Below the pieces are notes generated by a model. It searched no databases and was not told where the DNA came from. It worked only from the letters and a program-made list of their open reading frames with translations. Positions 4,720 to 63,450 of a DNA stretch of 64,000 bases are shown here, piece by piece. The stretch's first letter is position 1. Each line of letters opens with the position of its first letter. The stretch lies in the IMG/VR virus record IMGVR_UViG_3300042922_001018. One strand, given 5' to 3'. The position numbers and the translations under genes were made by a program. The DNA is from a virus. Taxonomy: Duplodnaviria > Heunggongvirae > Uroviricota > Caudoviricetes.

Positions 4720-4728
4720 TGTAGGCGG
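4720..4728 (-). promoter_or_regulatory. CCGCCTACA element (minus strand) 8 nt upstream of ATG of gene 4064-4711
   Basis: tgcaCCGCCTACAGTcggagcATG; TACAGT fits a -10 hexamer TANNNT 6 nt before the start codon. Confidence 0.45.
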
Positions 4729-4747
4729 TGCAGCGCGGTACCGCAAC

Positions 4748-5077
4748 CTACATTTCGGTTTCGGACAACTCATGGGTGGTGATGGAGACGACAGGCGTAG
4801 TGTGCCGCGTCGTCCCTTCACCCGCGCTGAGGGGTTCCAGCGTCAGGATGAGTGGCAAGCCGACCCGGATGACATCGAACGAATCCGGAGACTTCACGCC
4901 GTGGAGCGTGACGATACGAACCCACTCGTCGTCGCAGCGCATCTCCATGAACCCGAACCCGCCATCGGCAGCAGCGCTGGGAGGGGAAGGGTTCAGACGC
5001 CGGACACGTGACAGGTCCGGCAGGAACTCGTAGATGGCGCCGGAGGCAGTCGTTGCCCGCGTCACCGTGATGTTCAC
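4748..5077 (-). CDS. hypothetical protein (109 aa), paralogue of 5074-5292
   Basis: N-terminus TVTRATTASGAIYEFLPDLSRVRR vs TLVKTRDGAQYEFTADKLHVRD in the next gene. Confidence 0.45.
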   Translation of the reverse strand: MNITVTRATTASGAIYEFLPDLSRVRRLNPSPPSAAADGGFGFMEMRCDDEWVRIVTLHGVKSPDSFDVIRVGLPLILTLEPLSAGEGTTRHTTPVVSITTHELSETEM

Positions 5078-5292
5078 GTCAGGTCCAGGATGTCAGTCAC
5101 ATTGCTCGTGTAGAAGGCTCCTCCGCCTTCGAGCACCTGGAACATACTGAAGCCCAGTTCAATGGAAGCGGGCGCTACCAGTTCGCTCCACGTCTTCTCT
5201 GACGCGTCGCGGACGTGGAGCTTGTCGGCGGTGAACTCGTACTGCGCACCATCGCGCGTCTTCACCAGGGTTGTCGGAGTCATGAGGGTCAT
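5074..5292 (-). CDS. hypothetical protein (72 aa), paralogue of 4748-5077
   Basis: ATGA overlap with neighbours; shared N-terminal motif. Confidence 0.45.
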   Translation of the reverse strand: MTLMTPTTLVKTRDGAQYEFTADKLHVRDASEKTWSELVAPASIELGFSMFQVLEGGGAFYTSNVTDILDLT

Positions 5293-5957
5293 GGTACCAC
5301 GGTTTCCTTCAGATAGTCAGGAGGGATTTCGTCCCTCCACCCTTGTAGGATGATGTCGATAGGCGCGAGGAACTCGTGGTGCGCGGAGTTGTCAAGGTCG
5401 AGTCCGTAGGACTGCGGCAACATGAACTGGCGCATGTACTCGGGGTCCACGCCCGCATCGTACACGCGGCAGTAGTCTTCCTCTTCGAAGAAGGGAACGC
5501 GCGCTGCGTACTCGGCCGGGATGCCACGGGCATAGACCCGGCTCAGCATGAAAGGCGTCGCGAATCGGTTCGTACCAACCAGGCGGAGCATGTAAGAGAC
5601 GGGAACGTCGCGCATGCCCCACCAGTTTCCCTGTGCGTCTACCACTCCGCGCAGGTTCGGGTTCTTCTCCAGACAGAGCCGCAGAAAGGCGAAGTGCAGG
5701 ATGCTGTCAGCGTCCGCACCGACATGCTCGGCGTGCCGCATCAGGTTCTCGAAGTCGGCCGGACCGCTTATGGATGTCACATGGCGTTGGACGGGGATGG
5801 GTGTGCCCTCGGCGAAGTGCCGTGCGTATTCCCACCTGTTCTCGGTCAGAATGTCGAAGAACTGGAGCACGTGGCCAGGTCCGCTGAACACGCTAGCCGC
5901 GTATTCGCGGACCTCTGGGTTCGTTCCCCAGCCGCCGTGCATTGCCAGACCGAACAT
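5289..5957 (-). CDS. G[VI]PxEY[AL]-motif family protein (222 aa)
   Basis: Contains RGIPAEYAARV and AGVDPEYMRQF. Confidence 0.55.
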   Translation of the reverse strand: MFGLAMHGGWGTNPEVREYAASVFSGPGHVLQFFDILTENRWEYARHFAEGTPIPVQRHVTSISGPADFENLMRHAEHVGADADSILHFAFLRLCLEKNPNLRGVVDAQGNWWGMRDVPVSYMLRLVGTNRFATPFMLSRVYARGIPAEYAARVPFFEEEDYCRVYDAGVDPEYMRQFMLPQSYGLDLDNSAHHEFLAPIDIILQGWRDEIPPDYLKETVVP

Positions 5958-6592
5958 CAGAGGTTCTTCTTCTCCAGAATCACGGCGTAGTCGGCGATGA
6001 GCAGGCGTTCCAGTTCGTCTACGAAGCTCATCGGGTCTTCTCGGTAGTCCGGGTCACTGGTGACGACATCCAGGAATTCGTCGCGAGTAACCACACGCGC
6101 CTCGCTGACGCCCGAACCGTACCTCCGGTAGTCCTCGGACACCTCTGCGAAACTCGTGAGTCCTGTGGCGTCCAGGACGGTGTGTGGGCCAGCTAGAACG
6201 GCCGCGTGGCCGCTCCATTCGCCATCCGCTTCCACATCGCGGCTGGTGAAGAGAACCAGCGGCAGGCCCGTACGGTCGTGAAGAGCGAGGGCGAGGAGCG
6301 TGCAGGCACCATGACGGAACAAGCTGATGGCTTCAGCGTCCAGCTCGCCGTATGTGACAGTCGCGCTCTGGGAGCCGATGTAGATGTCGAACTCTTTCAC
6401 GAAACGGCTGCTCGACTCGTACAGCTCATCGAGGCTCAGTTCCGGGTTCGCTTCAGCGACCCGTTCGAAGATGAGAGTGTGAAGAGCCGAGTTGCTCGGA
6501 AGTGTGCGCCAGTCCATGCGTCTATGGTACGCCGCAGCGCCCGGTGTGTCAACTATGCGGTCAGGTACTCGATGGCGATGCCCTGCTCCCAT
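5957..6592 (-). CDS. hypothetical protein (start uncertain)
   Basis: ORF with 1-nt overlap to the downstream gene; N-terminal ~25 aa Arg/His-rich, real start may be the internal Met (MDWRTLPSN). Confidence 0.4.
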   Translation of the reverse strand: MGAGHRHRVPDRIVDTPGAAAYHRRMDWRTLPSNSALHTLIFERVAEANPELSLDELYESSSRFVKEFDIYIGSQSATVTYGELDAEAISLFRHGACTLLALALHDRTGLPLVLFTSRDVEADGEWSGHAAVLAGPHTVLDATGLTSFAEVSEDYRRYGSGVSEARVVTRDEFLDVVTSDPDYREDPMSFVDELERLLIADYAVILEKKNL

Positions 6593-7332
6593 CCGGAGAC
6601 AATCGCCTCCACGGGTACCGAAGCGTTCCCGGCGGCGACGGCGTACTCAGCCGACACGCCAGCTTCGAACAGCGTGGGTATATCGGATGGGGTTACCCAC
6701 GGCGGATTCTCGTCGCGGGCGAACGCGTTGGCGTAGGTCCACGGGACACCGTTGTGGAAGAGCATGACGATGTCCGCTTCGATGTACCGCCTGCCATTCG
6801 TCGGTCCCCACCCTGCTTTTGCGCGAGCGGTCATGTCTACGACACCGTTCGTGATGTTCCGCGCGAAGTCGGCTGAGACACCCTGCGCATCGAACCGGAC
6901 CGCTCGGCGGAGAACGCGAGGGTCCACAGGGAGATTGGCGAACGCTTCTTCGAGGAATGGGAGGGAAGCGTGCTTGACCTTGGTCCACCCGCCGTCGTTC
7001 TCACCCGGCGTGTATTCGGGGTCGAACTGGAACCCGGCTTGTAGGTACGCGAAGACCGGCAGTTCCTCCCGCTGCACACGACTAGCGTACGCATCGGAGA
7101 AGGCGTCGCGGACGAGCTTCGTCTGAGGCATCCAACCCGCGGGGGTCGCCATCGGAAGTCCGGCGATGTATTCGGCGAACCCGTCCCGGCGCCCGCCGGA
7201 GAGTCGATGGATGCGGTCGAGGTAGGCGATGAACGAGCTGTAGTCATCGAACAGTCGTCTGACCGTCTTGCCTTCTTGGGTGTTCTTCAGGTGCCAACGG
7301 TCAAGGAGCTGTTCAAGGTCGTGGTCACTCAT
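6553..7332 (-). CDS. G[VI]PxEY[AL]-motif family protein (~259 aa, start trimmed)
   Basis: Track start 7458 overlaps the upstream gene by 134 nt; ATG at 7332 (MSDHDLEQLL) overlaps the upstream TGA (ATGAGTGA); C-terminus AGVSAEYAVAAG...GIAIEYLTA. Confidence 0.55.
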   Translation of the reverse strand: MSDHDLEQLLDRWHLKNTQEGKTVRRLFDDYSSFIAYLDRIHRLSGGRRDGFAEYIAGLPMATPAGWMPQTKLVRDAFSDAYASRVQREELPVFAYLQAGFQFDPEYTPGENDGGWTKVKHASLPFLEEAFANLPVDPRVLRRAVRFDAQGVSADFARNITNGVVDMTARAKAGWGPTNGRRYIEADIVMLFHNGVPWTYANAFARDENPPWVTPSDIPTLFEAGVSAEYAVAAGNASVPVEAIVSGWEQGIAIEYLTA

Positions 7333-13144: not shown

Positions 13145-13542
13145 GCGAACCTATCTTGAAGCGTACCGATGAGGCGACCGGCGCCTGGGTGTCCGGCCGT
13201 CTGCTCGTCGGTGCGTTCACGGATGAGCATGCTGACGAGGCGTACTATTCGGACTTCGCGCCGTACGCGGACATCGTTTCCACCCGTGATGAGGAGCGTG
13301 TGCTGTTCGTTGCGGGCGTCTATGTCCCGACGGAGCATCGCGGACAAAGGCTCGGCCTGCGGCTTCTCGACGAACTAACCGAGGAGCTGGAAGCCGACAG
13401 AGATGTCCTGGTGGCACAAGAATTCGAGACGCCGTCCGCCTGGGTGCACCCCGCTCGTCTGGAGCTGTACTACTTCAACGCCGGGTTCCGACGCATCGGA
13501 TGGACGATGGAGCGGTGCCCGCTGATGCAGCGGGTTCACTGA
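13141..13542 (+). CDS. GNAT family N-acetyltransferase
   Basis: Motif A VYVPTEHRGQRLGLRLLDEL (R/Q-x-x-G-x-G/A); 133 aa. Confidence 0.6.
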   Translation: MSEPILKRTDEATGAWVSGRLLVGAFTDEHADEAYYSDFAPYADIVSTRDEERVLFVAGVYVPTEHRGQRLGLRLLDELTEELEADRDVLVAQEFETPSAWVHPARLELYYFNAGFRRIGWTMERCPLMQRVH

Positions 13543-14078
13543 CGCCAGGCGGAAATCTCGCGGGCAGCTTTCGCGGTCTTGCTCTCGATGGTGCCGATGT
13601 CGTAGCTACGTCGTTCGAAGCGGACGTTCTCTGAGTCGCCCAGGTCGTACCACACGTCTTCGTTGTCGAGCTGGACCGAGCGACCATCGGTCGCAGTGAC
13701 GTTCCCGGCGGTGTTCTCGTCGCCGACGTACACCGCGATGTCTTCCCCTTCGAGAGATGCGACGTAGCGGCGTGCGAACACATCGCCGGAGTGCTCTGGG
13801 GTGGTGTTCAAGGCGCAGTGCAGAGTGTCGCAGTCGCTACCGGAGTAGCCTTCGAGACCGGGCTGCCCCATGCCTACGTGGTAGTCGGCGATGTCCTCGA
13901 TGAAGTCCTGGTCGAGGTCATCGAGGAGATTGCCGAGCGCGATGGGGGTCGTCATCTTCTGCGCGCGGAGAGCCTCAATCATGGAGCTGTGGCTCAGGCG
14001 GACTTCGGGAACAGTGCCAGTCTTCTCAGCGAACTGTCCCGACTCATCACGCGGATGCTCCGACGGGTTGAAGCTCAT
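13536..14078 (-). CDS. N-terminal-leader family protein (variable C-terminal domain)
   Basis: MSFNPSEHPRDESGQFAEKTGTVPEVRLSH; ATG 14078 lies 2 nt after the upstream TGA (translational coupling); track GTG 14087 is alternative. Confidence 0.6.
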   Translation of the reverse strand: MSFNPSEHPRDESGQFAEKTGTVPEVRLSHSSMIEALRAQKMTTPIALGNLLDDLDQDFIEDIADYHVGMGQPGLEGYSGSDCDTLHCALNTTPEHSGDVFARRYVASLEGEDIAVYVGDENTAGNVTATDGRSVQLDNEDVWYDLGDSENVRFERRSYDIGTIESKTAKAAREISAWRQ

Positions 14079-14080: not shown

Positions 14081-14884
14081 TCACCACCGGTCCATTTCAG
14101 TGTTGCTCTCAACGACATCGACTCGGCCGTCCATGTAGTCGATGCGAGTGATACTTCCGCCGGAGGAGATGCGGTTGATAACGCCGGGTGCTCCGCCTTC
14201 AGTCGGTCGGACCACTTCGCCTTCCTTCAGCGAGGAGGCAGGCTCGGTGACCTGCTCGCGGTTGCGCACGGCGAACTGTGCGTACGCATCGTACAGTTCA
14301 CGTTCTTCGCCTGCCTCGTCGGAGGAGTACAGACCGGAGAGTGCGACCTCGTTGAACTCAGCGTCCTGGCCGAGGAACGGCAGCTTGGCGATAGCGGTAC
14401 GGACCGCGGCGCCCGCCGTCATGGGTTCCGCGGATGAAGACAGCCCGACGAAACGCCCGCGGTTGGCCCCGTAGAAACCGCCACGGGCGAGAAGCATCTC
14501 GTGTCGGTAGAGGCCGTCGGGCTGCCGAACGACAGACTTGACGACACCGACGATTCCCTGGTTCTCAACGAGCTTCTCGAAGTCCTCCGCACCCGGCGGG
14601 CGGAAAGTGTTGAGCGGACGCCCGGCGCCGACAGCGTTGCTGTCCGCGAGAGCATCCCACGCCCGCATACGGCGTCCGGCGACATCCTCACTCTGGAGCA
14701 TCCGCGCGACCTGTACCTGCGAGTAGCCGTTCAGACCGATTTCGTCGGACAGCGGTGGCCAGTGCTTCGAGAAGGTGCGCTCGGGGAAGTCCATCCTTTC
14801 GAGCACGACATCGGAAGAAAGACCGACCTTTTCGGCGAACTTGCCGTCGGTGGTGCGGGGGTGCTGCGCAGAGTCGAAAGTCAT
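14081..14884 (-). CDS. N-terminal-leader family protein (267 aa)
   Basis: MTFDSAQHPRTTDGKFAEKVGLSSDVVLE; preceded by caCCGCCTACAaccgggcATG. Confidence 0.65.
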   Translation of the reverse strand: MTFDSAQHPRTTDGKFAEKVGLSSDVVLERMDFPERTFSKHWPPLSDEIGLNGYSQVQVARMLQSEDVAGRRMRAWDALADSNAVGAGRPLNTFRPPGAEDFEKLVENQGIVGVVKSVVRQPDGLYRHEMLLARGGFYGANRGRFVGLSSSAEPMTAGAAVRTAIAKLPFLGQDAEFNEVALSGLYSSDEAGEERELYDAYAQFAVRNREQVTEPASSLKEGEVVRPTEGGAPGVINRISSGGSITRIDYMDGRVDVVESNTEMDRW

Positions 14885-15519
14885 GCCCGGTTGTAGGCGG
14901 TGTGCAGACGGGTGTAGAGCGTTTCCGCATCATCCTGCCCTACCCACACGTTCGAACCGTCAGGGTAGACCATCCTGAAGCGGCGTCCCCCGCCTGTCCT
15001 GAACTCTTCTCCGATACGACCGTTCGGGTCTCCGCCTCGGAGAGCTTCATGCAGCTCTTCATGGAGTTCATGGGCCTCGGTGGCGCTCAGCTCGCGGGCC
15101 TTGGAACGTGCGGTGCTGACGCGGATGTTTCCTGCGGCATCTGCGGCCTCGTGCGCTTCACAGATAGCGACAAGTTCTCTGGCGGTTGCGGCTGCGGCTC
15201 GCGCCTGCTCTCGACTGCCGGGGGTGGAGAACAATCGGCGCGCCTTAGCCTCGTGCGCTTCAGCGATGGCGGTGTAGCGTGAGCAACGTTCTCCATGCGA
15301 GCGCGCCCCGCGATAGGCATTCCGTAGCTCATCGAGCTGGGAAGTTCCTGCGCGCTGGATTCGATACTCCAGTTCGCTCTCTGCAAGGCGCTCGCGAAGA
15401 GAGTTGGGGAAAGTGGGGACACCCGCGGGTGTGGACAAGGTTACCTCCGGTGCGAGACCTTCCTTGAAGCCGAAGCGACCGTCCTGCTCGCGGCTTACCA
15501 GTGTCTCATCAAAAGCCAT
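14881..15519 (-). CDS. N-terminal-leader family protein, degenerate leader (212 aa)
   Basis: MAFDETLVSREQDGRFGFKEGLAPEVTLSTP; preceded by tcCGCCTACAcccgattATG. Confidence 0.6.
   Translation of the reverse strand: MAFDETLVSREQDGRFGFKEGLAPEVTLSTPAGVPTFPNSLRERLAESELEYRIQRAGTSQLDELRNAYRGARSHGERCSRYTAIAEAHEAKARRLFSTPGSREQARAAAATARELVAICEAHEAADAAGNIRVSTARSKARELSATEAHELHEELHEALRGGDPNGRIGEEFRTGGGRRFRMVYPDGSNVWVGQDDAETLYTRLHTAYNRA
14892..14900 (-). promoter_or_regulatory. CCGCCTACA element upstream of gene 14081-14884 (lies inside the 3' end of gene 14881-15519)
   Basis: ctgcacaCCGCCTACAaccgggcATG. Confidence 0.4.
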
Positions 15520-15526: not shown

Positions 15527-15535
15527 TGTAGGCGG
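15527..15535 (-). promoter_or_regulatory. CCGCCTACA element 7 nt upstream of ATG of gene 14881-15519
   Basis: Noncoding position between 15519 and 15545. Confidence 0.45.
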
Positions 15536-15544: not shown

Positions 15545-16324
15545 TCAGTCCAGGTAGTCGAACGGTGCGGCCGTGTACATGATGGCCGCGTACTCGCGCG
15601 TCAGCCCCGCTTCAGCGTATGCCTGGATGTCGTCTTCCAGCACGCTGTTCCGGGCAAGTTCGATTCCGAGCAAGTAGTCGTTCTCCACGCCAGTCCACTC
15701 GGCGATAGCGGCGAGGTACGTGTCCACTTCGGCGCCGACGGCGATGCCTTCCAGGCTCAGAACTTCGTCGAGGACACGGCGTCCGAACTCGTCCCGTGAC
15801 GAAGTCGAAATGAGGTAGCTCTCAACATGGTACCCCTGCGCCATGTCGCACACCGCACCGAGGTACGAGATGTCTTCACCATCGGTGAATGCTTCGGGTT
15901 CGGCAGGGAAGGCGTTCGCTCCAACCCGCTCGCAGAGCAGCTTCTCGTACTGTGGCGCAATCAGCCACATGTTTTCTGCGGCCGACTTTCCAGTTGCGTC
16001 CGCAAGTCTGATGGCGAAGTCGGTCTTAGCCTTGCGCGGCAGCAGCCAACCATGGATGTGCTTCACCTCCGCAGCGATGGCTTCCAGCACATCCGCATGC
16101 TGGACGTACGCTCGCGCACACGTCTCCGGCGAGACGACGGCGACCTTAGTCGGTGTCAGGCCGAACAAGTCGCGGTAGACTCCGGCGGAGAAACGCTGAG
16201 CGGCCTCAGGAGCAAGTAACTCCAGTGCGCTCTGCATGTCATCCCTCCGCGGCATCGCTGACGCGAAGGTGTTCGGGTCGAAAGGCATGATGCTAGCGTA
16301 CGCCGCGAAGCCGCACTGTGTCAA
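15545..16324 (-). CDS. Array subfamily B protein (259 aa)
   Basis: C-terminus EAGLTREYAAIMYTAAPFDYLD; last gene of the long paralogue operon. Confidence 0.6.
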   Translation of the reverse strand: MTQCGFAAYASIMPFDPNTFASAMPRRDDMQSALELLAPEAAQRFSAGVYRDLFGLTPTKVAVVSPETCARAYVQHADVLEAIAAEVKHIHGWLLPRKAKTDFAIRLADATGKSAAENMWLIAPQYEKLLCERVGANAFPAEPEAFTDGEDISYLGAVCDMAQGYHVESYLISTSSRDEFGRRVLDEVLSLEGIAVGAEVDTYLAAIAEWTGVENDYLLGIELARNSVLEDDIQAYAEAGLTREYAAIMYTAAPFDYLD

Positions 16325-17127
16325 GCAGAGACTTCGAGGAGGTACTCTAGCGGTACACCGTTCTTCGAGGCTTCGCTGATGGCCTCCGGGTCTGTCAGAC
16401 CCGCAGCCAGCGCAGCGACGGCGTACGGGGCGGGGACGCCAGTAATCAGACAGTCGAGCAGTAGACCGGCTGACTGCGGGTCTGACGCGTTACGAATGTG
16501 CTGCGGGTTGCATCCTGCTTTCAGCAGTGCGTACGCCTGCGGATGACCGAGGAAGTTCGAGCACAGCGTGTCGCGGGCTTCGCGCTCCGTCCATGACGCT
16601 CGCGGCGCGAGGAGGCCGAGATGCTTCCCGTCGGTCACAGACTTCAAGCCTTCGACGACGGAGGTTTCAATCGGTCCGATAATCAGCATGTTCAGGAGTG
16701 TCTGGGCGCCAGCAGGTCCAACCGAATCAGCGAGCGCAGAGTTGACGCCGTACACGAGGTGGAGCGGGTTCACTCTGCGCTCGGACGCGAGTTTCTCGAT
16801 GGTTTTCGCAGCGAGGTCGCGGTTCGAGTTCAGCGCCCAGTCATCTCGGAAATCCGCTCGCCCGGCATGGGCTAGCATCACCGGTCGAATCCAGGTGTCC
16901 ATCACCTTGAAGATGTGCTCGAACGTCTCCGGGTCTTCGTGGAACCGTGCGATGATGGCGCGGGCCGCACGCTCCGGCAGCTTGGTCCCACCCGGCTCCT
17001 GGAGAACATCCCGGTTCCAAGCCCAGTAGGCTCCAATACCGGTGAAGATGTACGGCAGCCGAGGTTCAATCTGTGCGAGCATAGCCGGGTTGGCGACTAG
17101 GTACACGCCTGCGTCGTAGTGGGTCAT
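16321..17127 (-). CDS. Array subfamily B protein (268 aa)
   Basis: ITGVPAPYAVAALAAGLTDPEAISEASKNGVPLEYLLEVSA; ATGA overlap. Confidence 0.6.
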   Translation of the reverse strand: MTHYDAGVYLVANPAMLAQIEPRLPYIFTGIGAYWAWNRDVLQEPGGTKLPERAARAIIARFHEDPETFEHIFKVMDTWIRPVMLAHAGRADFRDDWALNSNRDLAAKTIEKLASERRVNPLHLVYGVNSALADSVGPAGAQTLLNMLIIGPIETSVVEGLKSVTDGKHLGLLAPRASWTEREARDTLCSNFLGHPQAYALLKAGCNPQHIRNASDPQSAGLLLDCLITGVPAPYAVAALAAGLTDPEAISEASKNGVPLEYLLEVSA

Positions 17128-17131
17128 GGCG

Positions 17132-17986
17132 TCAATCCTTCACAATGCCGAGGGAGACGTACGCGTACTCCAGCGGAAGCCCGTCCTGGGAACAACGTAC
17201 GACATCGTCTACAGACATCCCGCGTGCGAGAGCTGCCGAAGCGTAAGGAGCATCCACGCCGCGAACGATGGCGTTCATCAGCTCGCGCTCACCGCCGATT
17301 CGGCTGGCCAGCGTGGTCAGGGCTTCTGTAGAGCACCCGGCTCGGAGGAGTTCGTAGCCGTAGTCCAACCTCGTGACCGTACGGCACAGTGAGTCGAACA
17401 CGTCCTTGTACCGCGCGCTGTCGAAGAGGAGGTTGCTCGGAACATCCGGTAGTGTCCCGTCGGAGGTCATTGACACGACCTTCTCCAGAATGTCCGGCTC
17501 CATCTTCATGAGGGAGCAGCCGAGGATGATGGACTCCGCTGTGTGCGGCGCCGTCGCCGATGCGAGGAACGGGGTCAGGCCGTAAAGGAGAGAGGCGAGA
17601 GGCATGTCTGCTCGGCGGGCTTCCGCACGGATAGCTTCCACGGGGTGTGGGTGCGCCAGCACTCGCTCGAAGATTTCCGGGTGTGCGACATACTGCCTGC
17701 TGATGGCCCGACCGATAGCCACGTCGAGGTGGCCCGTGTGAGCGTCGTTTCCGTCTGCTCTCGTCGAGAACGCCCCCGCCAATGCGGGTGACGTTTGGAA
17801 GAGGGTCAAGAAATGACCACGGACGATACGCTTCACAGGTCTAGCGTAGCTGTCGGAGCGGAACGTGTCAAGCTTGCGCCGTGCGTGACGGTGTAGACTG
17901 ACAGCATGAGCTACCGTACCGAAGAGCGCTTCGTCGGCGGGCTGGTTGCCGAGAAGCTTGCGGAGCTGCAAGAGCGCTACACTCAC
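17132..17986 (-). CDS. Array subfamily B protein (start 17986 ATG or 17836 GTG)
   Basis: RGVDAPYASAALARGMSVDDVVRCSQDGLPLEYAYV; alignment with paralogues favours the later GTG start (KRIVRGHFLTLF...). Confidence 0.55.
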   Translation of the reverse strand: MSVALLQLRKLLGNQPADEALFGTVAHAVSLHRHARRKLDTFRSDSYARPVKRIVRGHFLTLFQTSPALAGAFSTRADGNDAHTGHLDVAIGRAISRQYVAHPEIFERVLAHPHPVEAIRAEARRADMPLASLLYGLTPFLASATAPHTAESIILGCSLMKMEPDILEKVVSMTSDGTLPDVPSNLLFDSARYKDVFDSLCRTVTRLDYGYELLRAGCSTEALTTLASRIGGERELMNAIVRGVDAPYASAALARGMSVDDVVRCSQDGLPLEYAYVSLGIVKD

Positions 17987-20519: not shown

Positions 20520-21211
20520 TGTCCGCCTTCTGTCAGCTCGGGAAGATACTCAGCCGGAATGCCCTCCCGATAGTACATGAGGGCAGCATCCGGGTCAAGG
20601 CCTAGGCGCAGTGCGGCGACCGCATAGTCGGGATGCACACCTAGGACGGTGCAAGCCGCGAGGTGCTCCGGATGCACAGCGAAGAGGTGACGATGTGTGA
20701 CTCCGGCACGTAGCATCGGATAGGCAAGAGCGTGCCCGATGATACGTGAGCAGAGTAGCGAGCGGGCTTCGAACTCCGTCGGTACCCTCGCGTACGTCCC
20801 CTCTGTGAAAATGACCGCAGACATTGGCCCGTCGTCATCGACTAACCCTTCTCGCAGGGTGGTGAGGATGTGCTCGTCGATATCGCCGAGCTGGCAGACG
20901 AACATCAGCTCTGCCATGTCGCCGATGAGGAAGGAGTCCGCGACATGCTTCGGCATACCGTACATCAGAGTGTAGACATGCTCGCCGTTCGCTGCGGCCC
21001 TTGCCGCGAGTCCTTCCAGGACATCGCTGCTCTCGAAGGCGCACTCGAAGTCAGCTTTCCTCTCGACATACCGTGAAGCGACCCGCTGTGCGACGTAGAT
21101 TTTCACGAAGGACGGCAAAGAGGGGTGTATCCCGTCCAGCGGCAGCATCGACGCGAGTCGTTCAGAGGCCGCGGTCAAGGTCTGCCGGTCGCCGCTCCAG
21201 AGGCTCGTCAT
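20516..21211 (-). CDS. Array subfamily B protein (231 aa)
   Basis: LGVHPDYAVAALRLGLDPDAALMYYREGIPAEYLPEL. Confidence 0.6.
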   Translation of the reverse strand: MTSLWSGDRQTLTAASERLASMLPLDGIHPSLPSFVKIYVAQRVASRYVERKADFECAFESSDVLEGLAARAAANGEHVYTLMYGMPKHVADSFLIGDMAELMFVCQLGDIDEHILTTLREGLVDDDGPMSAVIFTEGTYARVPTEFEARSLLCSRIIGHALAYPMLRAGVTHRHLFAVHPEHLAACTVLGVHPDYAVAALRLGLDPDAALMYYREGIPAEYLPELTEGGQ

Positions 21212-21879
21212 AGCGCCACCGAAACGTATTCCGGAGCGATACCGCTGTGGTAGGCGTCGGCGATGATGTGAGGGTCGATGTCGCGCTGTAGGAGTGCGCT
21301 CGCGTATCCCGGCGGGACTCCGAGGACCATGCAGGAAGTCAATGCGCCACTGTGCCGCTCTAGCATGATGTCTTCGAGAGTAGCTCCGCCGCGCATCATC
21401 GCATACGCGAACGGGGTGCCCATGACGTATTGCGCGAGGACGGACCGCGCCGCGTAGGCCGATGGCACACCCGTGAACTTACCCAGCCCGAACTTGTTCG
21501 GACCGAGCGGCTGCTTCTCGTTGCGGAGAACAAGCTGCGCCAGGACGTGTCGCTCCATGTCCCCGATTTGGATGACGCACATGAGCTGCTCGGGCGTCTG
21601 GATGTCTACCGCGTCGATGACGTACTGCGGGATACCGTAGACGAGCGTGTAGAGGTGAATCTCCTGCTCTTCGGCCGCAGTCTCTAGCGCGAGTGTCCAG
21701 CGCTCCTTGGCGAGCGCCGCATCGAAGACCTCCCGATACTTCCCGTACTGCTCGATGATGCGCTTCGCGATGTGGCGATGTATCCAGTCACCGCCGTAAT
21801 CGGTGGGTACGCCTAGCGTATCCGCGAGTACCTGGGCCGCGGGTTGCAGGGTCTTGGCATCGCCGTGCCAGAGCCTCAC
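21208..21879 (-). CDS. Array subfamily B protein (223 aa)
   Basis: LGVPPGYASALLQRDIDPHIIADAYHSGIAPEYVSVAL. Confidence 0.6.
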   Translation of the reverse strand: MRLWHGDAKTLQPAAQVLADTLGVPTDYGGDWIHRHIAKRIIEQYGKYREVFDAALAKERWTLALETAAEEQEIHLYTLVYGIPQYVIDAVDIQTPEQLMCVIQIGDMERHVLAQLVLRNEKQPLGPNKFGLGKFTGVPSAYAARSVLAQYVMGTPFAYAMMRGGATLEDIMLERHSGALTSCMVLGVPPGYASALLQRDIDPHIIADAYHSGIAPEYVSVAL

Positions 21880-22544
21880 TTCATCTCCATCAGGTACTCA
21901 ACGGGCACGCCCTCGCGGTACGCTTTGGCTACCAGCGGCGGGTCGATGTTGCCCTTCGTCTGGGCCGCGTACGCGGGGGACGCGCCGAGGATGATGCTGT
22001 CGATGACCTTCTGCGAATCCTTGTAGTCCGTCGCGGGGCGTATGCCCATCTGAAGCAGCGCATACGCGGAGTCGGCGCCGAGGAACGCAGAGCAGAAGTG
22101 CGCTCGGAGCGCGTACGCATCCGTCCACATCGCATCTCTGAACATCCCGGCGGCGAGAGGCTCGTAGTCGTTCTCTTCGCGCAGCATCTCCAGGACTTCG
22201 GGTTCGAACTCACCCGCCTTGATGAGCCACATCAGCTCATGCGGGGCTTTCACCTCGAAGGCGTCTGCCATAGCGCTCGGGACACCGTACGCCAGCTCGT
22301 AGAGGTGGATGCCCTGCTCTTTCGCAGCCTGGCGGAGGATGACTTCTTCCGGGAGCGACGAAGCCATCGCCGCATCGAAAACAGCCGTGTGTCTCCGATA
22401 CTGTTGCACGAGCTGGGCGGCAATGGGACCGCTGTAGATGGCGACGGCCCGCTGATGGTTCCCGAAGACTTCGGCGAACCGGTCCGAGATAGTCGAGAGA
22501 ATCTGGTCATTGCCCTTGAAGAAGAGCGGAAGGTTCTCAGGCAC
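21876..22544 (-). CDS. Array subfamily B protein (start GTG 22544 or ATG 22583)
   Basis: LGASPAYAAQTKGNIDPPLVAKAYREGVPVEYLMEMK. Confidence 0.55.
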   Translation of the reverse strand: MPENLPLFFKGNDQILSTISDRFAEVFGNHQRAVAIYSGPIAAQLVQQYRRHTAVFDAAMASSLPEEVILRQAAKEQGIHLYELAYGVPSAMADAFEVKAPHELMWLIKAGEFEPEVLEMLREENDYEPLAAGMFRDAMWTDAYALRAHFCSAFLGADSAYALLQMGIRPATDYKDSQKVIDSIILGASPAYAAQTKGNIDPPLVAKAYREGVPVEYLMEMK

Positions 22545-22773
22545 CGGCTGCCGCCCTGAAGTATTCGTTCGGTACGCCATCATGCTCGGAGATGTACACC
22601 TCGGTCGCCTCCCAGCGACGCTGCATGCCCGCCGCCGGACCAGTACCCGCCTCGTCCGACCAGCGGTTCAGCATGCGCCCGTCCGGAAGCTGTGCGATGC
22701 TCCAACCGTCGTAGACGCCGGGCAGCTCGATGAGGACTGCGGCTTCTGAGAACTGTTCGGACGATACGGCCAT
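22537..22773 (-). CDS. mini-ORF (78 aa) ending in DGVPNEYFRAAAGA
   Basis: Third short ORF carrying only one copy of the family motif; Trp-rich. Confidence 0.35.
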   Translation of the reverse strand: MAVSSEQFSEAAVLIELPGVYDGWSIAQLPDGRMLNRWSDEAGTGPAAGMQRRWEATEVYISEHDGVPNEYFRAAAGA

Positions 22774-22782
22774 GCGCTCAGT

Positions 22783-23607: not shown

Positions 23608-23638
23608 GGCGCCAGCGTATCGGGGAAACGGTCCGAGG

Positions 23639-43282: not shown

Positions 43283-43996
43283 TCAGGTACACACAGGTCG
43301 CGCAAGGGCAGCGGTCCACCGTCTGTGCTTCAACCGGAACATAGGTTCGTACCGTTCATCCTCCAGCGGCGACGCGAACTCGCCGATACTGCGGGGTAGA
43401 CAATCGTAACGCCCGAGCGGGTTCCCATCGTCCGGTAGCTTGTCGCGGTATCCGGCCTTCGTGATGAGGTCGTCTTCCTCTTTCGTGATGACCGCGAATC
43501 GTGGACCGGTGTGAGCATCGCGAAGGTGATGGAGCATGGCTGCACCATCCGGTATCTCCCCGTCCCGGTAGGCGGTGAAGAGCCGGTCTACGATGAGCCT
43601 CTGCGGCATGACGTGTTCGAGGCGGAGCCGGTGGCTGATGTTCTCCCCCGTGAGCAACAACTCGCGCGCATCCGGCGACCAGGGCAAGCCCGCTGCGAAC
43701 TGACCGGAGCCACCATGCTTCGGGCCTGGTAGCCGGGGATGCTGCCAGTCCTCAGCAATCTGATGACGGGCTGTCTTCTTCAGAACACCACGCGCAGCCC
43801 GGCGTTCCCAGACTACGAGGTACTCGAACAAGTCCTCTGCGTCCTGGCCATCGACCGGAAGTTCGATGAGCTGCTGTGCCTGAGGGTCCGTCCAATGAGC
43901 AGGCGCTTCCACGAGCGACAGCTCCGGCGCGGACCCCACCTTCTCTGCGAAGCGCCCCTCCGTATCACGGCGGACATCGGTCTCGGAAAAGGTCAT
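43283..43996 (-). CDS. N-terminal-leader family protein (237 aa)
   Basis: MTFSETDVRRDTEGRFAEKVGSAPELSLVE; internal echo of the leader HPRLPGPKHGGSGQFAAG. Confidence 0.6.
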   Translation of the reverse strand: MTFSETDVRRDTEGRFAEKVGSAPELSLVEAPAHWTDPQAQQLIELPVDGQDAEDLFEYLVVWERRAARGVLKKTARHQIAEDWQHPRLPGPKHGGSGQFAAGLPWSPDARELLLTGENISHRLRLEHVMPQRLIVDRLFTAYRDGEIPDGAAMLHHLRDAHTGPRFAVITKEEDDLITKAGYRDKLPDDGNPLGRYDCLPRSIGEFASPLEDERYEPMFRLKHRRWTAALARPVCT

Positions 43997-44031
43997 GGCC
44001 CCTGGTAGGCGGTCTACCAGGGGCCATGACC
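43991..44031 (-). terminator. 18-bp perfect hairpin (5-nt loop) plus T-tract immediately after res; the stem includes the CCGCCTACC element and start codon of gene 43283-43996
   Basis: GGTCATGGCCCCTGGTAG-gcggt-CTACCAGGGGCCATGACC; on the minus strand followed by TTTTCC, which encodes codons 3-4 (F-S) of the leader. Confidence 0.5.
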
Positions 44032-44037
44032 TATGAA

Positions 44038-46662: not shown

Positions 46663-48512
46663 TCTCCCACCAGCTTAGCAGCCAGTGGGTCGTTCGTGCA
46701 AATCAAGCCCAAACGCTCCTCCCAGTCGTAGGCTGTGTCGTCTTCAGAGACCACTACAGCGCTCGAAACATCGCCGAGCGACGAGATAGCCACTCTGAGG
46801 CTCTCGAAGACATCTTCGTCGTCATCGAGAGCCTCAGAGTCATGTGCGACGATGACAGCACGTGAGTCGTGCGAAACCGCCAGGCTGAACTCAGCAGTTT
46901 CCAGAACTGGCACTGCGTTGTGGGCGATGAGAGCTGCCGCGAAGAGATAGGGGCGAAGCTCGCGGTACAGCTCAGCGTCCTTCTTCGGCTCTGTGCCCTT
47001 GCCGTAGACTGCACCATCTACGTTGTACTTCACGACCTCGCGCTTACGAGAGGGAAGCAGGCCCATCTCGAAGACCTGGAGACCCTGGCCGAGTGACGGG
47101 TGAGGCTTGCCATCAGCCCAGTCCTCCCCAGTCAAGACGCGGCGCAAACGCTCACGGGTGATGTCCTGCGCGATGTTGACGGCCCGAGCGCGCTGCTTAT
47201 CGGTCGTGGCGGCGGACGGGCCAGCCTCGGATGCCAAACCGGCGTCCGTCACGAGGATAGCCTGCCGAGTGCCACCGTCCTCGGTATTCAGCTCGGCTAC
47301 AGCCTGGCCGGTCGTCCCGGAGCCAGCGAAGAAATCGAGCACGATGTCATCCTCAGCGGTAGCGATGCGCACGAGGTGCTTGATGAGTTCGACCGGCTTC
47401 GGGAACGAGAACTTGTCAGACCCGAGTACGACTTTGAGGTTCCCCTTCCCAGTCTGCGACCGCCCGAACCGCTCGTCGGTGAGCAACGTGCGAGGCTGCT
47501 GCGCGTCTTTTTCGTAGTTCTTGGTATAGACCTTGCCATCCTTGAAAACGAGGTCGTCCTTGTACGCTGCAACGTTCGCCTGACTCCAGCGCCAGCATAC
47601 CTTTTGTCCCGGTACTCGGATTTCGGGGAGGTATGTCTCACCATCCGGACCGACAATAGGAAAATCGAGAGTGGGCGCGTAGCGGAGACTGGTCTTGTCT
47701 AGACGAATGAGCGTGTAGTTCCCATTTTCGTCCTGAAGAGGGTAGCTCTCTCCTGCCACAGCCACGGAATCGAGGTAGAATGTCGGCTTGACGAGCGGGG
47801 AGGCTCCGAAAGTGAGGACGTACTCGTGGTCGGTCGTGATGCCGTGAGCATCGTTACCGCCGCCCGCCTTCTTCTTCCAAATCTGGTTCGCGACGAAGGC
47901 ATCCTCGCCGAAGATGGCGTCCATCAGGAGCCAGAGGTGCCTCAGCTCGCTATCGTCGATGTGGACGTAGATGATGCCGTCCTTCTGGAGAAGACGCTTG
48001 GCGGCGATGAGGCGTGCGGCCATGAGCGTGAGCCAGAACGAGTGCGAGAAGCGGTCGCGGAACGTCATCTCGTCGCTGTTGCTGACGTAAGGCGGGTCAA
48101 TAAGTACCAGCTTCACGCTGCCCTTGTGCGTCGCGGCGAGAGCCACGAGGGCCAGCAGGTTGTCGCCCTGGATGAGTGAGTGAGCAACTCCGCCGTCGGG
48201 AGTTACCACATCAGCGTCCGGGATGCGCTTGAAGAACGGGAGGTGGGTCCGCAGCTCGCTTGCGAAGTGGTCCTCCTCGGGAACCCAGCGCAGCCCCAAT
48301 GCCTGAGACTGCTTCTCCGCGTCGTCGAGAAGTACGCCGATACGGCCGACATTCTCAATCACCTTGCGCGTGATGTCAGAGTCGCGGGTCAGCGAATCAC
48401 GGTCCACGCTGTTCTGGATGTCTACGGCGAGGGCGCGGAGGTCTGAGTAGATGGTCACCAGAGGACTATACCACGAAACTGGCGAGGTGTAAAACACCAA
48501 AGGGCTTGACAT
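46629..48512 (-). CDS. mod: Type III R-M Mod subunit, beta-class N6-adenine (or N4-cytosine) DNA methyltransferase (~627 aa, start trimmed)
   Basis: Motif IV LIDPPYVSN followed by motif I DFFAGSGTTGQA (beta order); track ORF extends to 49037 but its first ~175 aa are antisense to the LRV genes; ATG 48512 (MSSPLVFYTSPV). Confidence 0.8.
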   Translation of the reverse strand: MSSPLVFYTSPVSWYSPLVTIYSDLRALAVDIQNSVDRDSLTRDSDITRKVIENVGRIGVLLDDAEKQSQALGLRWVPEEDHFASELRTHLPFFKRIPDADVVTPDGGVAHSLIQGDNLLALVALAATHKGSVKLVLIDPPYVSNSDEMTFRDRFSHSFWLTLMAARLIAAKRLLQKDGIIYVHIDDSELRHLWLLMDAIFGEDAFVANQIWKKKAGGGNDAHGITTDHEYVLTFGASPLVKPTFYLDSVAVAGESYPLQDENGNYTLIRLDKTSLRYAPTLDFPIVGPDGETYLPEIRVPGQKVCWRWSQANVAAYKDDLVFKDGKVYTKNYEKDAQQPRTLLTDERFGRSQTGKGNLKVVLGSDKFSFPKPVELIKHLVRIATAEDDIVLDFFAGSGTTGQAVAELNTEDGGTRQAILVTDAGLASEAGPSAATTDKQRARAVNIAQDITRERLRRVLTGEDWADGKPHPSLGQGLQVFEMGLLPSRKREVVKYNVDGAVYGKGTEPKKDAELYRELRPYLFAAALIAHNAVPVLETAEFSLAVSHDSRAVIVAHDSEALDDDEDVFESLRVAISSLGDVSSAVVVSEDDTAYDWEERLGLICTNDPLAAKLVGEWRAAISNSGA

Positions 48513-48525
48513 CTCGGTCCCAGCA

Positions 48526-48535
48526 CGCCTACAGT
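48526..48535 (+). promoter_or_regulatory. CGCCTACAGT element (plus strand) upstream of the LRV-repeat operon, divergent from mod
   Basis: cagcaCGCCTACAGTaagaATG...gaaaggacacctcATG; TACAGT fits -10 TANNNT. Confidence 0.4.
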
Positions 48536-48539
48536 AAGA

Positions 48540-48986
48540 ATGTCGAAAGGACACCTCATGAACAAGCTTTCCCTCGCTTCCGCGAAGAACCTCACGCCCA
48601 TCCAGGTCGGCCACCTCGCCGCCGATGAGAACCCCGAGGTCCGCCAGGCTCTCGCCACCAACCCGAGCACGACCCCCGCCATCCTCTCCTACCTCGCCGA
48701 AGACGCGGACCGGAACGTTCGCATCGCGGTCCTCCGCAACGCTCGCACCCCGTTCAACGTTCGAGTCGCGGCCGTCGAATCCGGCGACCTCGAAGCGGCT
48801 ACCGTCGCCTACAACAAGGCGTCGGACTACCAGAAGGCCCAGCTCCAGCCGCGCCTCGTGCAGAACGATGACGAGACCCTCACCGACTTCGTGAGCCGGG
48901 TGCGCGGCGACGCCCGCCGCCGGGCGTTCGAGAAGATGGGTGCGGCCCTCGGAGCGGAAGACGCCGAACTCGTCGAGACGTGGTGA
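48540..48986 (+). CDS. LRV/HEAT-like repeat protein 1 (start 48540 or 48558)
   Basis: Repeats of the type AADENPEVRQALATNPSTTPAILSYLAEDADRNVRIAVLRNARTP (leucine-rich-repeat-variant / PBS-lyase HEAT-like); SD GAAAGGA before ATG 48558. Confidence 0.6.
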   Translation: MSKGHLMNKLSLASAKNLTPIQVGHLAADENPEVRQALATNPSTTPAILSYLAEDADRNVRIAVLRNARTPFNVRVAAVESGDLEAATVAYNKASDYQKAQLQPRLVQNDDETLTDFVSRVRGDARRRAFEKMGAALGAEDAELVETW

Positions 48987-49432
48987 GCCGGATGGAGGCA
49001 AACGCAGTGCGCCTCCGGAACGCAGCGGACCCCGCAACTGCGGTGACGCGCCTCCGTGAGTACGCTGGTGATGCCTTGCCGCGGGTACGAGCGGCAGTGG
49101 CTCGGAACGCTTCTACACCGCTCGCGCTCCTCATGGAACTCATCGCTGACGACCAGCTCGGCGTGGCGATGGCAGCGATGGAGAACCCGGCCGTCCCCTA
49201 CGAAGTGCGCCGCGCCGTCATCGAGACCGCCAAGGACACGAACCTGATGATGGCTGCCACCCGCAGCGAGGACGGAGCGGAGTCGCAGGTTCTACGGAAG
49301 CTCGCTGACTCCATCCGGTCTGCACGACGGAAACGTGGGCCTGAGTCGAAGCATGACATTCGGCGCCGGGCGCTGGACAAGATGGGTGCCGCCCTCGGAG
49401 CGGAAGACGCCGACCTCATCGAGGCATGGTGA
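48980..49432 (+). CDS. LRV/HEAT-like repeat protein 2 (150 aa)
   Basis: ...DALPRVRAAVARNASTPLALLMELIADDQLGVAMAAMENPAVPYEV...; the C-terminal 18 aa DKMGAALGAEDADLIEAW duplicate the end of protein 1. Confidence 0.55.
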   Translation: MVSRMEANAVRLRNAADPATAVTRLREYAGDALPRVRAAVARNASTPLALLMELIADDQLGVAMAAMENPAVPYEVRRAVIETAKDTNLMMAATRSEDGAESQVLRKLADSIRSARRKRGPESKHDIRRRALDKMGAALGAEDADLIEAW

Positions 49433-52289: not shown

Positions 52290-52298
52290 CCGCCTACA
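52290..52298 (+). promoter_or_regulatory. CCGCCTACA element 7 nt upstream of ATG 52306
   Basis: ggtCCGCCTACAcgagggcATG, in the 27-nt intergenic gap. Confidence 0.45.
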
Positions 52299-60244: not shown

Positions 60245-60291
60245 CGACTCTACCGCTTGCGTGGTGAAGTCTGCCCGTGTACACTGGGGAC

Positions 60292-62372: not shown

Positions 62373-62552
62373 ATGCTCACGACGAACGTCCCGCTGGCCC
62401 GCGCACACGGGGTCATCTACTCGTACGACGAGGAGACCTGCGACATCTCGCTGCCCGATGGCTCCGCCGGTCTCCGGCTTCGAGGACTGTTCAACGGCGA
62501 GACGTTCGACTTCCCGAAGGGCGAGGTCGTCATCGTCTCGATGACTCCCTGA
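62373..62552 (+). CDS. possible small protein (59 aa)
   Basis: MLTTNVPLARAHGVIYSYDEETCDISLPDGSAGLRLRGLFNGETFDFPKGEVVIVSMTP; very high GC3; not in the track. Confidence 0.35.
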   Translation: MLTTNVPLARAHGVIYSYDEETCDISLPDGSAGLRLRGLFNGETFDFPKGEVVIVSMTP

Positions 62553-62574
62553 AAACGCGTGGTAGGCTCGAACC

Positions 62575-63132
62575 ATGTCTGAACCGACCCACGAAATCGT
62601 CATCGGCGTCTACCAGGACTCTTTCGTCCGTGGCATCCGATGCCTGCACACGGAGCGCGGAGAGGTCTGTGCGCCGGACGCAGAGACGCAGGCACACCCG
62701 GACTTCGCAGAGACCGTCTACGAACTCTGCTGGAATCCCGAGCAGCCGACTGCGGGTCAGTGCTTCTGGGAGGACTACTTCTTCGGGATGAGTGACTTCT
62801 ACGCGGACAACGGGGACGCCCCCGAGTCGCTGACACTCTTCACGACGCCGGTCACCGTCGTCACCGAGCACCCGCTCGTCGTCCGAGAAGACCCCAACGG
62901 GAAGTCCACCTTCGCCATCCGGGGCGAGAACGGTGACCACATCGGGATGGAGCTGGACGGCAAGTACATCTCCGACATCGAACTTCCGCTGGAGTTCCTG
63001 GTCGTTCACCCGGTCATCTGGACCGTGGAACAGGTCCAGGAAATCCTCTGGACGACCGAAGGCGAGAAGCGGACTCTCCACCCCGGCGATACTCAGTGGG
63101 ACAAGTACGCCGCTCTGGTCACGACTGCGTAG
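62575..63132 (+). CDS. hypothetical protein (185 aa)
   Basis: Protein-like ORF, Trp/Cys-containing. Confidence 0.5.
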   Translation: MSEPTHEIVIGVYQDSFVRGIRCLHTERGEVCAPDAETQAHPDFAETVYELCWNPEQPTAGQCFWEDYFFGMSDFYADNGDAPESLTLFTTPVTVVTEHPLVVREDPNGKSTFAIRGENGDHIGMELDGKYISDIELPLEFLVVHPVIWTVEQVQEILWTTEGEKRTLHPGDTQWDKYAALVTTA

Positions 63133-63135
63133 CGG

Positions 63136-63417
63136 TCAGTACCGCGGCTCGAACATCTCGTCATCGTCGTAGATGCGCCAGCCATCCTCTGAGCTGGTTA
63201 CACGTCGCTCATGCCTGCGGCGGCGTGGTTCAGCGACTAGCGCCGGTTCGACCTCCGGTGAGAAACGCGCGCTGCCGAGGAGTCGCTCGACTACCTGAAC
63301 GTCATGCGCCATCGCGATGAGCGGATTGTCCCAGATGGGAGCCGGGTTCGCGGGAGTCACAACACGGCCATCAGCCAGGCGGTACGGTCTCGGCGCTGTC
63401 ATCCCCATGGACTTCAT
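63136..63417 (-). CDS. hypothetical protein (~93 aa, start trimmed to MKSMGMTAPRPYR)
   Basis: Track N-terminus (74 aa) is Arg/Ser/Cys-rich junk. Confidence 0.4.
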   Translation of the reverse strand: MKSMGMTAPRPYRLADGRVVTPANPAPIWDNPLIAMAHDVQVVERLLGSARFSPEVEPALVAEPRRRRHERRVTSSEDGWRIYDDDEMFEPRY

Positions 63418-63441
63418 CGTACCAGTCTGGTAGCGTTGTAT

Positions 63442-63450
63442 CCGCCTACA
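63442..63450 (+). promoter_or_regulatory. CCGCCTACA element 25 nt upstream of ATG 63476 (with SD AGAAAGG)
   Basis: tatCCGCCTACAgccgattactacagaaaggctacccATG. Confidence 0.4.

Follow-up and report, generated by a model that had tools for sequence, protein, structure and literature searches.

A candidate promoter element preceding a leader-tagged gene family on actinobacterial mobile elements

The sigma-A leaderless promoters known from mycobacterial start-site maps carry TANNNT about 6 to 7 nt upstream of an ATG or GTG that is both start site and start codon, and start sites usually follow the rule of a pyrimidine at -1 and a purine at +1. Sigma-28 factors of the FliA/WhiG type have the promoter consensus TAAA-N15-GCCGATAA, and Frpo-type promoters on single-stranded DNA (ssDNA) use a long hairpin that recreates the -35 and -10 elements on the strand being transferred, and their genes all point the same way with respect to oriT. 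Here we describe a nine-nucleotide element, CCGCCTACA, found upstream of a family of leader-tagged genes in a 64,000-nucleotide stretch of IMG/VR record IMGVR_UViG_3300042922_001018 (the whole stretch is called the window below), which is drawn from the 450-kb contig Ga0456364_0000048. Comparison of sequences suggests that the element is probably a promoter class that sets the transcription start site, yields mostly leaderless mRNAs, is distinct from housekeeping promoters, and is private to actinobacterial mobile elements.

Further described systems also come close. Cluster K mycobacteriophages have a 13-bp start-associated sequence (SAS), GGGATAGGAGCCC, with an AGGAG Shine-Dalgarno (SD) core 3 to 7 bp before ATG, for which a translational role has been proposed (PMC3203893). 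In pMP7017, a 34-bp motif overlaps the -10 element of 19 promoters (PMC10832533), and plasmids of the pLS20 family carry the establishment-gene regulatory sequences EGeRS1 and EGeRS2 (PMC8708921). The late promoters of the nonvirion RNA polymerase (nvRNAP) of jumbo phage AR9 consist of AACA at -11 to -8 on the nontemplate strand, six free positions, and TA with the A at +1; transcription from them needs uracil DNA and the multisubunit polymerase of the phage, which has a specificity subunit of its own and reads the template strand (PMC9209446).

The element and the leader family in the window

The pattern CCGCCTAC[AC] (CCGCCTACM) has seven exact sites in the window, against 0.91 ± 0.88 expected from dinucleotide shuffles, in which the maximum was three. 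Six of the seven are upstream of, and co-oriented with, the ATGs of paralogous genes. The preliminary description of this DNA had reported a conserved element at equivalent positions before these starts, more often than chance would allow; the element is real, and the sequences and coordinates quoted for it are correct. The copies are as follows, with distances counted from the last motif base to the ATG.

4720..4728, minus strand: motif copy CCGCCTACA, 8 nt before ATG 4711
14892..14900, minus strand: motif copy CCGCCTACA, 7 nt before ATG 14884
15527..15535, minus strand: motif copy CCGCCTACA, 7 nt before ATG 15519; starts 9 nt past the TGA of the upstream gene
44004..44012, minus strand: motif copy CCGCCTACC, 7 nt before ATG 43996; just downstream of the helicase stop
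52290..52298, plus strand: motif copy CCGCCTACA, 7 nt before ATG 52306
63442..63450, plus strand: motif copy CCGCCTACA, 25 nt before ATG 63476
43567..43575, minus strand: exact CCGCCTACC copy inside open reading frame (ORF) 43283-43996 (T-A-Y codons); no start codon after it, probably a chance occurrence

When the six upstream regions are aligned, the 9-mer does not vary and the DNA further upstream is unalignable; mean column identity over the aligned stretch, leader coding DNA included, is 56%. An invariant 9-mer amid such flanks suggests that the motif is under selection of its own and is not simply carried by recent duplication. A position weight matrix scan of the window found no gene start outside the family with the motif.

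Several of the sites have features of their own. The copy at 14892..14900 lies, as had been pointed out in the preliminary description, within the last codons of the upstream paralogue 14881-15519 (T-A-Y-N-R-A-stop, with an ATGA start/stop overlap), and the motif is kept at the orthologous sites L016_2134 and L011_2483 of two related loci. Site 4720..4728 can also be read as TACAGT-N6-ATG and so fits both this class and the TANNNT class; an imperfect inverted copy (TGTAGG..CGG) lies upstream of it. The copy at 44004..44012 is inside a perfect 19-nt inverted repeat (43990-44008 and 44014-44032; AGGTCATGGCCCCTGGTAG and CTACCAGGGGCCATGACCT, 5-nt loop) between the helicase stop (44038) and gene 43996, with five motif bases on one arm and four in the loop. 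The arm at 43990-44008 spans the start codon of that gene, and the repeat may serve as a terminator, as an operator, or as a hairpin acting in translation. At site 63442, the predicted start site is the A at 63458, which would give an 18-nt leader containing the SD sequence GAAAGG (63464-63469).

Beyond the six motif genes, two further family members were found (ATG 14078 on the minus strand and ATG 60292 on the plus strand). The eight paralogues share only an N-terminal leader of about 30 amino acids, M[ST]F[DN]E..HPR..DGKFAEK.G..PEV.L, and have unrelated C termini; on sequence grounds this looks like a polymorphic family of tagged effectors or anti-defense proteins.

4064..4711, minus strand: leader-family gene, 215 aa; leader plus GmrSD_N/DUF262 domain
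13536..14078, minus strand: leader-family gene without the motif; SD-like GGTGGTGA
14081..14884, minus strand: leader-family gene, 267 aa
14881..15519, minus strand: leader-family gene, 212 aa
43283..43996, minus strand: leader-family gene, 237 aa
52306..52833, plus strand: leader-family gene, 175 aa
60292..60711, plus strand: leader-family gene, 139 aa; variant promoter
63476..63946, plus strand: leader-family gene, 156 aa; leadered
60257..60291, plus strand: variant promoter of the gene at ATG 60292, TTGCGT (60257-60262)-N17-TACACT (60280-60285)-N6-ATG

The variant promoter of the gene at 60292 is canonical in form and includes a degenerate motif, CCGTGTACA, at 60275-60283. The gene at ATG 14078 has a 7-nt overlap with its upstream paralogue, whose TGA stop ends 2 nt before the ATG.

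The peptide HPR..DGKF[AST]EK was also seen in unrelated lower-GC organisms, namely, Christensenella, Planctomycetaceae, and viral contigs (L001 6570-6605, L002 5695-5730, L013, L029, L031, L036, and L037). It is internal in L002, and the sequences examined from L013, L029, L031, L036, and L037 show an ordinary SD ahead of the ATG and no CCGCCTACA. The distribution of the peptide motif is therefore far broader than that of the promoter motif.

Comparative evidence for a fixed start point

Related loci were retrieved through degenerate patterns for the coding sequence of the leader peptide and not through the motif, so that the sampling is independent of the motif. These patterns matched three genes in the Varibaculum cambriense chromosome and gave 43 matches in 32 metagenomic or viral loci; the viral matches were rejected as an unrelated low-GC protein with an ordinary SD. 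A hidden Markov model of the leader, run on six-frame translations of all GC-rich loci, the Varibaculum loci, and the window, yielded 99 distinct members, among which the motif is 7 to 9 nt from the ATG in 62, 13 to 64 nt away in 6, and missing in 31. The window and the related GC-rich loci (230 kb) together contain 65 distinct CCGCCTAC[AC] sites, with an ATG at exactly 7 nt in 50 to 52 of them and at 8 nt in five. Synteny links the window to three metagenomic contigs at 55 to 76% protein identity, and the motif is kept at orthologous sites.

An SD-like match of at least 4 nt is present at 7 of the 62 proximal sites, 5 of the 6 far sites, and 16 of the 31 motif-less sites (Fisher P = 2e-6), leaving 55 of 62 proximal sites without an SD. 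In all five far sites of family genes (window 63442, L006_70, L017_12482, L018_12513, and L033_689), an A is found at motif+8 although no ATG is there, which suggests that the motif determines what happens at that A independently of translation. Members with N-terminal extensions (MTTSPIPLS.., MLLEQPR.., and MTNLAFDE..) keep the N7-N8 spacing; the distance from motif to ATG is held, and that from motif to HPR is not. Some copies directly follow hairpins visible in the flanks (L023_168, L006_70, and L033_689), and two on Curtobacterium plasmids lie 2 nt past a tRNA 3' end (L039_19978 and L041_19975).

At two metagenomic loci (L011 2378-2483, minus strand, and L018 12513-12586, plus strand), the motif stands 64 to 90 nt upstream of a family gene with an SD of its own. 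In L011, the motif is followed by N7 and an ATG opening the leader-like start MTFSEADRV. This arrangement looks like a decayed leader ahead of a newer one.

The information profile consists of CCGCCTACA (-16 to -8), three free positions, G-G-G-C (-4 to -1), and the ATG, with no conservation from -66 to -18 in the lineage of the window. Position -1 is C in 45 of 52 proximal sites, which fits an initiation site of the pyrimidine(-1)/purine(+1) type. The position of the motif, its spacing, its conservation, the anticorrelation with SD sequences, the use before leadered genes and a tRNA cluster in sister plasmids, and the distinctness from sigma-A promoters are direct in silico observations.

In the mechanism that we propose, CCGCCTACA would be the core of a compact promoter at which RNA polymerase, with a factor other than plain sigma-A, would open the DNA around the invariant A at -10 and initiate at a purine 8 nt (9 nt in some lineages) past the motif. 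In most copies that purine would be the A of the ATG, and the resulting leaderless mRNA would not require an SD; where the motif is farther upstream, a short transcribed leader with an SD would be made. Within the window, the class would be used only by the eight-member leader family, which would form a regulon apart from its neighbors and their TANNNT-N6-start promoters. The suggestion in the preliminary description of a coregulated regulon, possibly under a dedicated factor, gains support from this comparison, and the element probably needs such a factor.

Other searches added little. Near-identity DNA searches with 24 kb against phage and plasmid collections gave nothing useful, tblastn with the helicase against the same kinds of collections gave distant matches only, and a protein homologue search with the 44-aa leader alignment gave no matches. 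A full-length family member found nothing among viral contigs, Rfam has no family in the window, and the literature on CCGCCTACA and CCGCACACA comprised unrelated primer or eukaryotic matches only.

Housekeeping promoters, sister lineages, and rival explanations

Among 95 window genes predicted with a crude caller based on GC content at the third codon position (GC3), 28 have a TANNNT that ends 6 nt (7 nt for two of them) upstream of the start codon; by our own estimate from base frequencies, about 2.6 would be expected. These boxes are typically gGTAGACT, often with TTGACA 17 to 18 nt upstream (for example, at starts 59464+, 61988-, 22773-, 31240-, and 39571-), and a consensus scan found nine sigma-70-type promoters versus 2.9 expected. 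Canonical leaderless transcription appears from these sequences to be the default on the element. Given 28 genuine TANNNT starts of different register and sequence, the motif would be a second, distinct promoter class. The preliminary description had proposed a shared -10 promoter of leaderless mRNAs whose embedded hexamer fits TANNN[TC]; the comparative evidence favors a promoter core for leaderless transcripts and speaks against the housekeeping -10. Position 6 of the hexamer is A in 12, C in 24, G in 13, and T in only 3 of 52 independent sites; TACANN ends 5 nt before the ATG, a 1-nt shift of register toward the start relative to TANNNT boxes; the lineage of the window shows no -35 element; and sister lineages have another base in place of the T of TACA.

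The sister lineages delimit what is essential in the motif. Described as a pattern, the class across lineages is CCGCNNACA-N7-9-ATG, with CT, AC, GC, or CA at positions 5 and 6, and the invariant parts are CCGC and ACA. The first base of TACA gives way to C in Curtobacterium, Arthrobacter, and Glaciihabitans (CACA) and to A in Varibaculum (AACA), and the A at hexamer position 2 (the -11 equivalent) is invariant in all. In Varibaculum cambriense, the variant CCCCGCCAACA (CCGCCAACA) occurs exactly 9 nt from the ATG of six leader genes, one of which is a leader-ArdA fusion (L003:874-1668), in a neighborhood that encodes ArdA, two DNA methylases, a PD-(D/E)XK nuclease, and a T-Q ester adhesin. A tblastn search with the leader against PLSDB led to 150- to 600-kb plasmids of Curtobacterium, Arthrobacter, and Glaciihabitans. 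The Curtobacterium and Arthrobacter megaplasmids have CCGC[ACG]CACA-N7/8-ATG at six to nine copies per 40 kb, preceding both leader-like genes and genes without the leader N terminus, and in Glaciihabitans the variant CCGCACAC precedes six leader genes.

Two of these plasmids bear on the function of the motif. On the plasmid of Arthrobacter sp. zg-Y1110 (L040), a 40-kb stretch contains 27 copies of CCGCACACA, of which 24 share a strand. Their bipartite consensus is GGTGA-N15-tgCCGCACACAtaggg, in which GGTGA is at about -36 to -32, and TAGGG lies downstream. Eight of the 27 copies have an ATG at N7-9, and several others visibly precede an SD and a later ATG; CCGCACACA appears to be a frequent promoter in the sampled region of this plasmid. 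On pS16 of Curtobacterium sp. MCSS17_016, one copy is 61 nt upstream of a tRNA-Thr/Lys/Gly/Gly cluster, with no ATG in the following 28 nt and no annotated coding sequence before 23428. A partner at -35 spacing, leaders of variable length, and a tRNA target characterize a promoter, not a ribosome-binding signal.

The element CGCCTACAGT at 48526, which the preliminary description had related to the motif and placed before an LRV operon, turned out to be part of an ordinary sigma-70-type promoter.

48506..48535, plus strand: sigma-70-type promoter TTGACA-N18-TACAGT containing CGCCTACA; outside the motif class

In the gene downstream of 48526, AAAGGA lies 6 nt ahead of a second ATG in the same frame. 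The region 48465-48535 carries divergent sigma-70-type promoters between a DNA methylase gene and the LRV-repeat operon, with TTTACA-N17-TATAGT and a TG on the minus strand and TTGACA-N18-TACAGT on the plus strand; with promoters so placed, the minus-strand ORF 46629-49037 probably starts near 48.4 to 48.5 kb.

Several observations weigh against a promoter with a fixed start point. The spacing from motif to start varies by lineage (motif+7, +8, or +9), and neither information content nor k-mer position reveals a -35 element in the lineage of the window, which, together with the depletion of T at position 6, makes it unlikely that host sigma-A alone uses the motif. The Pfam and PHROG matches of 78 window proteins include no sigma factor, regulator, or RNA polymerase subunit. 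About half of the copies start no more than 12 nt from the upstream stop codon or inside the upstream ORF, so that each gene of a tandem array would require a separate promoter. The gene calls behind the TANNNT count are crude, and site-specific RNA cleavage at a fixed distance would leave the identical sequence signature.

The main alternative to such a promoter is that the 9-mer mainly binds a repressor or activator encoded by the element and overlaps a weak host-type -10 (xACAnn), so that the genes would be off in the donor and expressed for a short time following transfer. It overlaps the promoter explanation, differing only in what reads the motif, and we regard it as unlikely. It would account for a CCGC more conserved than any part of a normal -10, for the inverted partial copy TGTAGG 10 to 30 nt upstream (4 of 54 sites versus 0.2 expected), for GTAG in 13 of 62 (4.2 expected), and for the placement of site 44004 within a perfect 19-nt palindrome, and it has precedents in the repressor-controlled establishment promoters of p576/pLS20 clade II (PMC8708921) and in the 34-bp motif over the -10 in pMP7017 (PMC10832533). 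However, the site is asymmetric and single in about 80 to 90% of cases, an operator would not require a constant spacing of 7 nt from the start point, what remains of the hexamer has no T6 and is out of register for sigma-A, and in Arthrobacter the partner element is placed at -35 spacing and is not an inverted repeat. No candidate for an element-encoded repressor was identified, and the inverted partial copy is found in a minority of sites only.

Less probable again is a signal acting in polycistronic RNA, either a translation enhancer comparable to the Cluster K SAS, whose conserved asymmetric words also stand 3 to 7 bp before ATG (PMC3203893), or an endoribonuclease site cut 7 to 8 nt downstream to leave leaderless mRNAs. 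The motif does take the place of a ribosome-binding site, the stretch at -4 to -2 is G rich, many copies sit in tight co-oriented arrays just past or within the upstream ORF, and cleavage at a fixed distance would also account for the A at motif+8. Yet the motif is not complementary to the 3' end of 16S rRNA, its G run is just 1 to 2 nt from the ATG, and downstream of far copies there is a normal SD with an ATG at 25 to 64 nt, so that the motif is not needed at the ribosome site; moreover, one copy is ahead of a tRNA cluster, others directly follow hairpins visible in the flanks, and a conserved partner at -35 spacing, as in Arthrobacter, would be meaningless for RNA. Pairing elsewhere in 16S rRNA was set aside: actinobacterial 16S rRNA presumably contains GUAGGCGG, the complement of CCGCCUAC, but this segment is base paired inside the ribosome, and the variants CCGCACACA and CCGCCAACA break the pairing. 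By far the least probable reading is a nonregulatory repeat, that is, a cassette boundary, a recombination core site, or a remnant duplicated with the leader. The motif does mark the 5' edge of a polymorphic gene family in arrays and within the window is exclusive to that family, but a mere repeat would hardly stay invariant beside unalignable flanks (56% mean column identity), persist in orthologous loci at 55 to 76% amino acid identity, extend in several cases into upstream coding sequence, and keep strict spacing to the ATG, and the Arthrobacter and Curtobacterium copies also precede genes without leader N termini.

An Frpo-type ssDNA promoter or a conserved upstream hairpin is not supported: there is no conserved upstream sequence, and the motif genes are on both strands of the window (4711, 14884, 15519, and 43996 on the minus strand; 52306 and 63476 on the plus strand). 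Folding z-scores at motif sites are slightly below those of controls (mean, -0.62 versus -0.13).

As for a factor that would read the promoter, the Arthrobacter plasmid L040 carries a divergent FliA/WhiG-like sigma gene (25444-26283) adjoining an Lsr2 gene, and homologues are present on seven Micrococcales megaplasmids, including all three leader-family Curtobacterium plasmids. These sigmas are as similar to chromosomal FliA/WhiG-like sigmas as to each other and hence are not plasmid specific, and none was found in the window or in the metagenomic loci examined. A plasmid FliA/WhiG-like sigma (WP_227934363.1 and its orthologues) as reader of the motif is only a lead.

Element context and comparison with known systems

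Few window genes are recognizable: a methylase, a helicase, AbiEii, GmrSD_N, SPFH, and a desaturase. A phage origin is unsupported, as no structural or terminase families were found among the 78 window proteins searched against Pfam and PHROG. Related loci encode VirB4-like AAA_10 ATPases, an M23 peptidase, a sortase, PARP, RtcB, RNA ligases, and PLD-like nucleases, and the cultured relatives are circular megaplasmids with 35 to 39 tRNAs and a transfer-messenger RNA (tmRNA). The elements look like conjugative plasmids or integrative and conjugative elements (ICEs).

On the Curtobacterium and Arthrobacter megaplasmids (400 to 608 kb), the tRNA sets of 35 to 39 genes are nearly complete and, with the tmRNA, occupy L039 11694-23748, L041 10090-26078, and L040 846-24241. 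They are interspersed with small ORFs and genes for RNA ligase, RtcB, DNA ligase, WhiB, and Lsr2.

Other gene arrays in the window, all on the minus strand, lack Pfam matches. Four tandem genes at 33831-38543 encode 380 to 401 aa with an unusually high GC content at the second codon position (0.54 to 0.58); 36235-37377 and 37377-38543 match the same L026 region by tblastn and thus are probably paralogues. Arrays of genes of about 220 to 285 aa lie at 15545-17986 and 21208-25227. Five of these genes (15545-16324, 17132-17986, 21208-21879, 23639-24430, and 24427-25227) match the same L016/L011 regions, which suggests a second expanded paralogue family.

The start of transcription at the motif, a dedicated sigma or activator, and a role in establishment after transfer or in anti-defense are points that we infer from sequence; fusions of the leader to ArdA and DUF262 suggest a regulon for one of these two roles. 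A wider reading is tentative and, in our estimate, rather doubtful: large actinobacterial conjugative elements, from Actinomycetaceae ICEs to the 150- to 600-kb Micrococcales megaplasmids, might share a private CCGC-NN-ACA transcription code with a specificity factor supplied by the element, which would make mostly leaderless mRNAs for HPR..DGKF-tagged proteins (ArdA and DUF262 fusions among them) in an establishment or anti-defense program uncoupled from sigma-A. In its extreme version, the -35-less arrangement xACA(-11 to -8)-N6-YA may mean that the template strand or a single strand is recognized, so that genes on incoming conjugative ssDNA could be expressed.

If the promoter explanation is correct, mobile elements of Actinomycetota would have a second, nonhousekeeping promoter class of nine invariant bases placed for leaderless mRNAs, with a regulon tied to a polymorphic family of proteins tagged at the N terminus, among whose domains are anti-restriction (ArdA) and nuclease-like ones. 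The motif would then be a sequence handle for finding the whole regulon in poorly annotated megaplasmids and ICEs. It would make it testable how giant plasmids separate an early or establishment program from host transcription, and it would offer a compact orthogonal expression signal for Micrococcales and Actinomycetales.

Set beside the known systems, the motif resembles sigma-A leaderless promoters in position, orientation, the lack of an SD at most proximal sites, the A at hexamer position 2, and the pyrimidine and A at the predicted -1 and +1. It departs from them in the depleted T6 (3 of 52), the 1-nt shift, the invariant upstream extension CCGC(C), and a first hexamer base that varies by lineage (T, C, or A). 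As with FliA/WhiG promoters, a long, highly conserved -10 region starting (G)CCG defines a regulon, the -35 is dispensable or lineage specific, and related Micrococcales megaplasmids encode a sigma of that type; however, the motif is CCGCCTACA or CCGCACACA and not GCCGATAA, there is no TAAA, and the -35 is absent or GGTGA.

The likeness to the AR9 nvRNAP promoter is one of geometry only (xACA at -11 to -8, then six free positions and a pyrimidine(-1)-A(+1) step, without a -35), since no RNA polymerase subunit families were found among the 78 window proteins (Pfam/PHROG) and the elements look like conjugative plasmids or ICEs. The SAS is likewise a short, asymmetric word used in one orientation a few base pairs before the ATG of a subset of genes, is restricted to one group of actinobacterial mobile elements, and has upstream inverted repeats in a subset of cases, but the present motif is unrelated to it in sequence, has no SD core, is anticorrelated with SDs, and is found at a distance from ATGs and ahead of a tRNA cluster as well.

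The motifs of pMP7017 and the pLS20 family are also repeats private to a plasmid family, placed before many operons rich in defense, anti-restriction, and unknown genes, and pMP7017 shares with these actinobacterial megaplasmids the tRNA arrays and tmRNA. Those motifs, however, are 34 to 600 bp long, surround a canonical -10 or include no promoter, and precede leadered genes, whereas the present motif has nine invariant base pairs and a noncanonical -10 and is predicted to give mostly leaderless transcripts.

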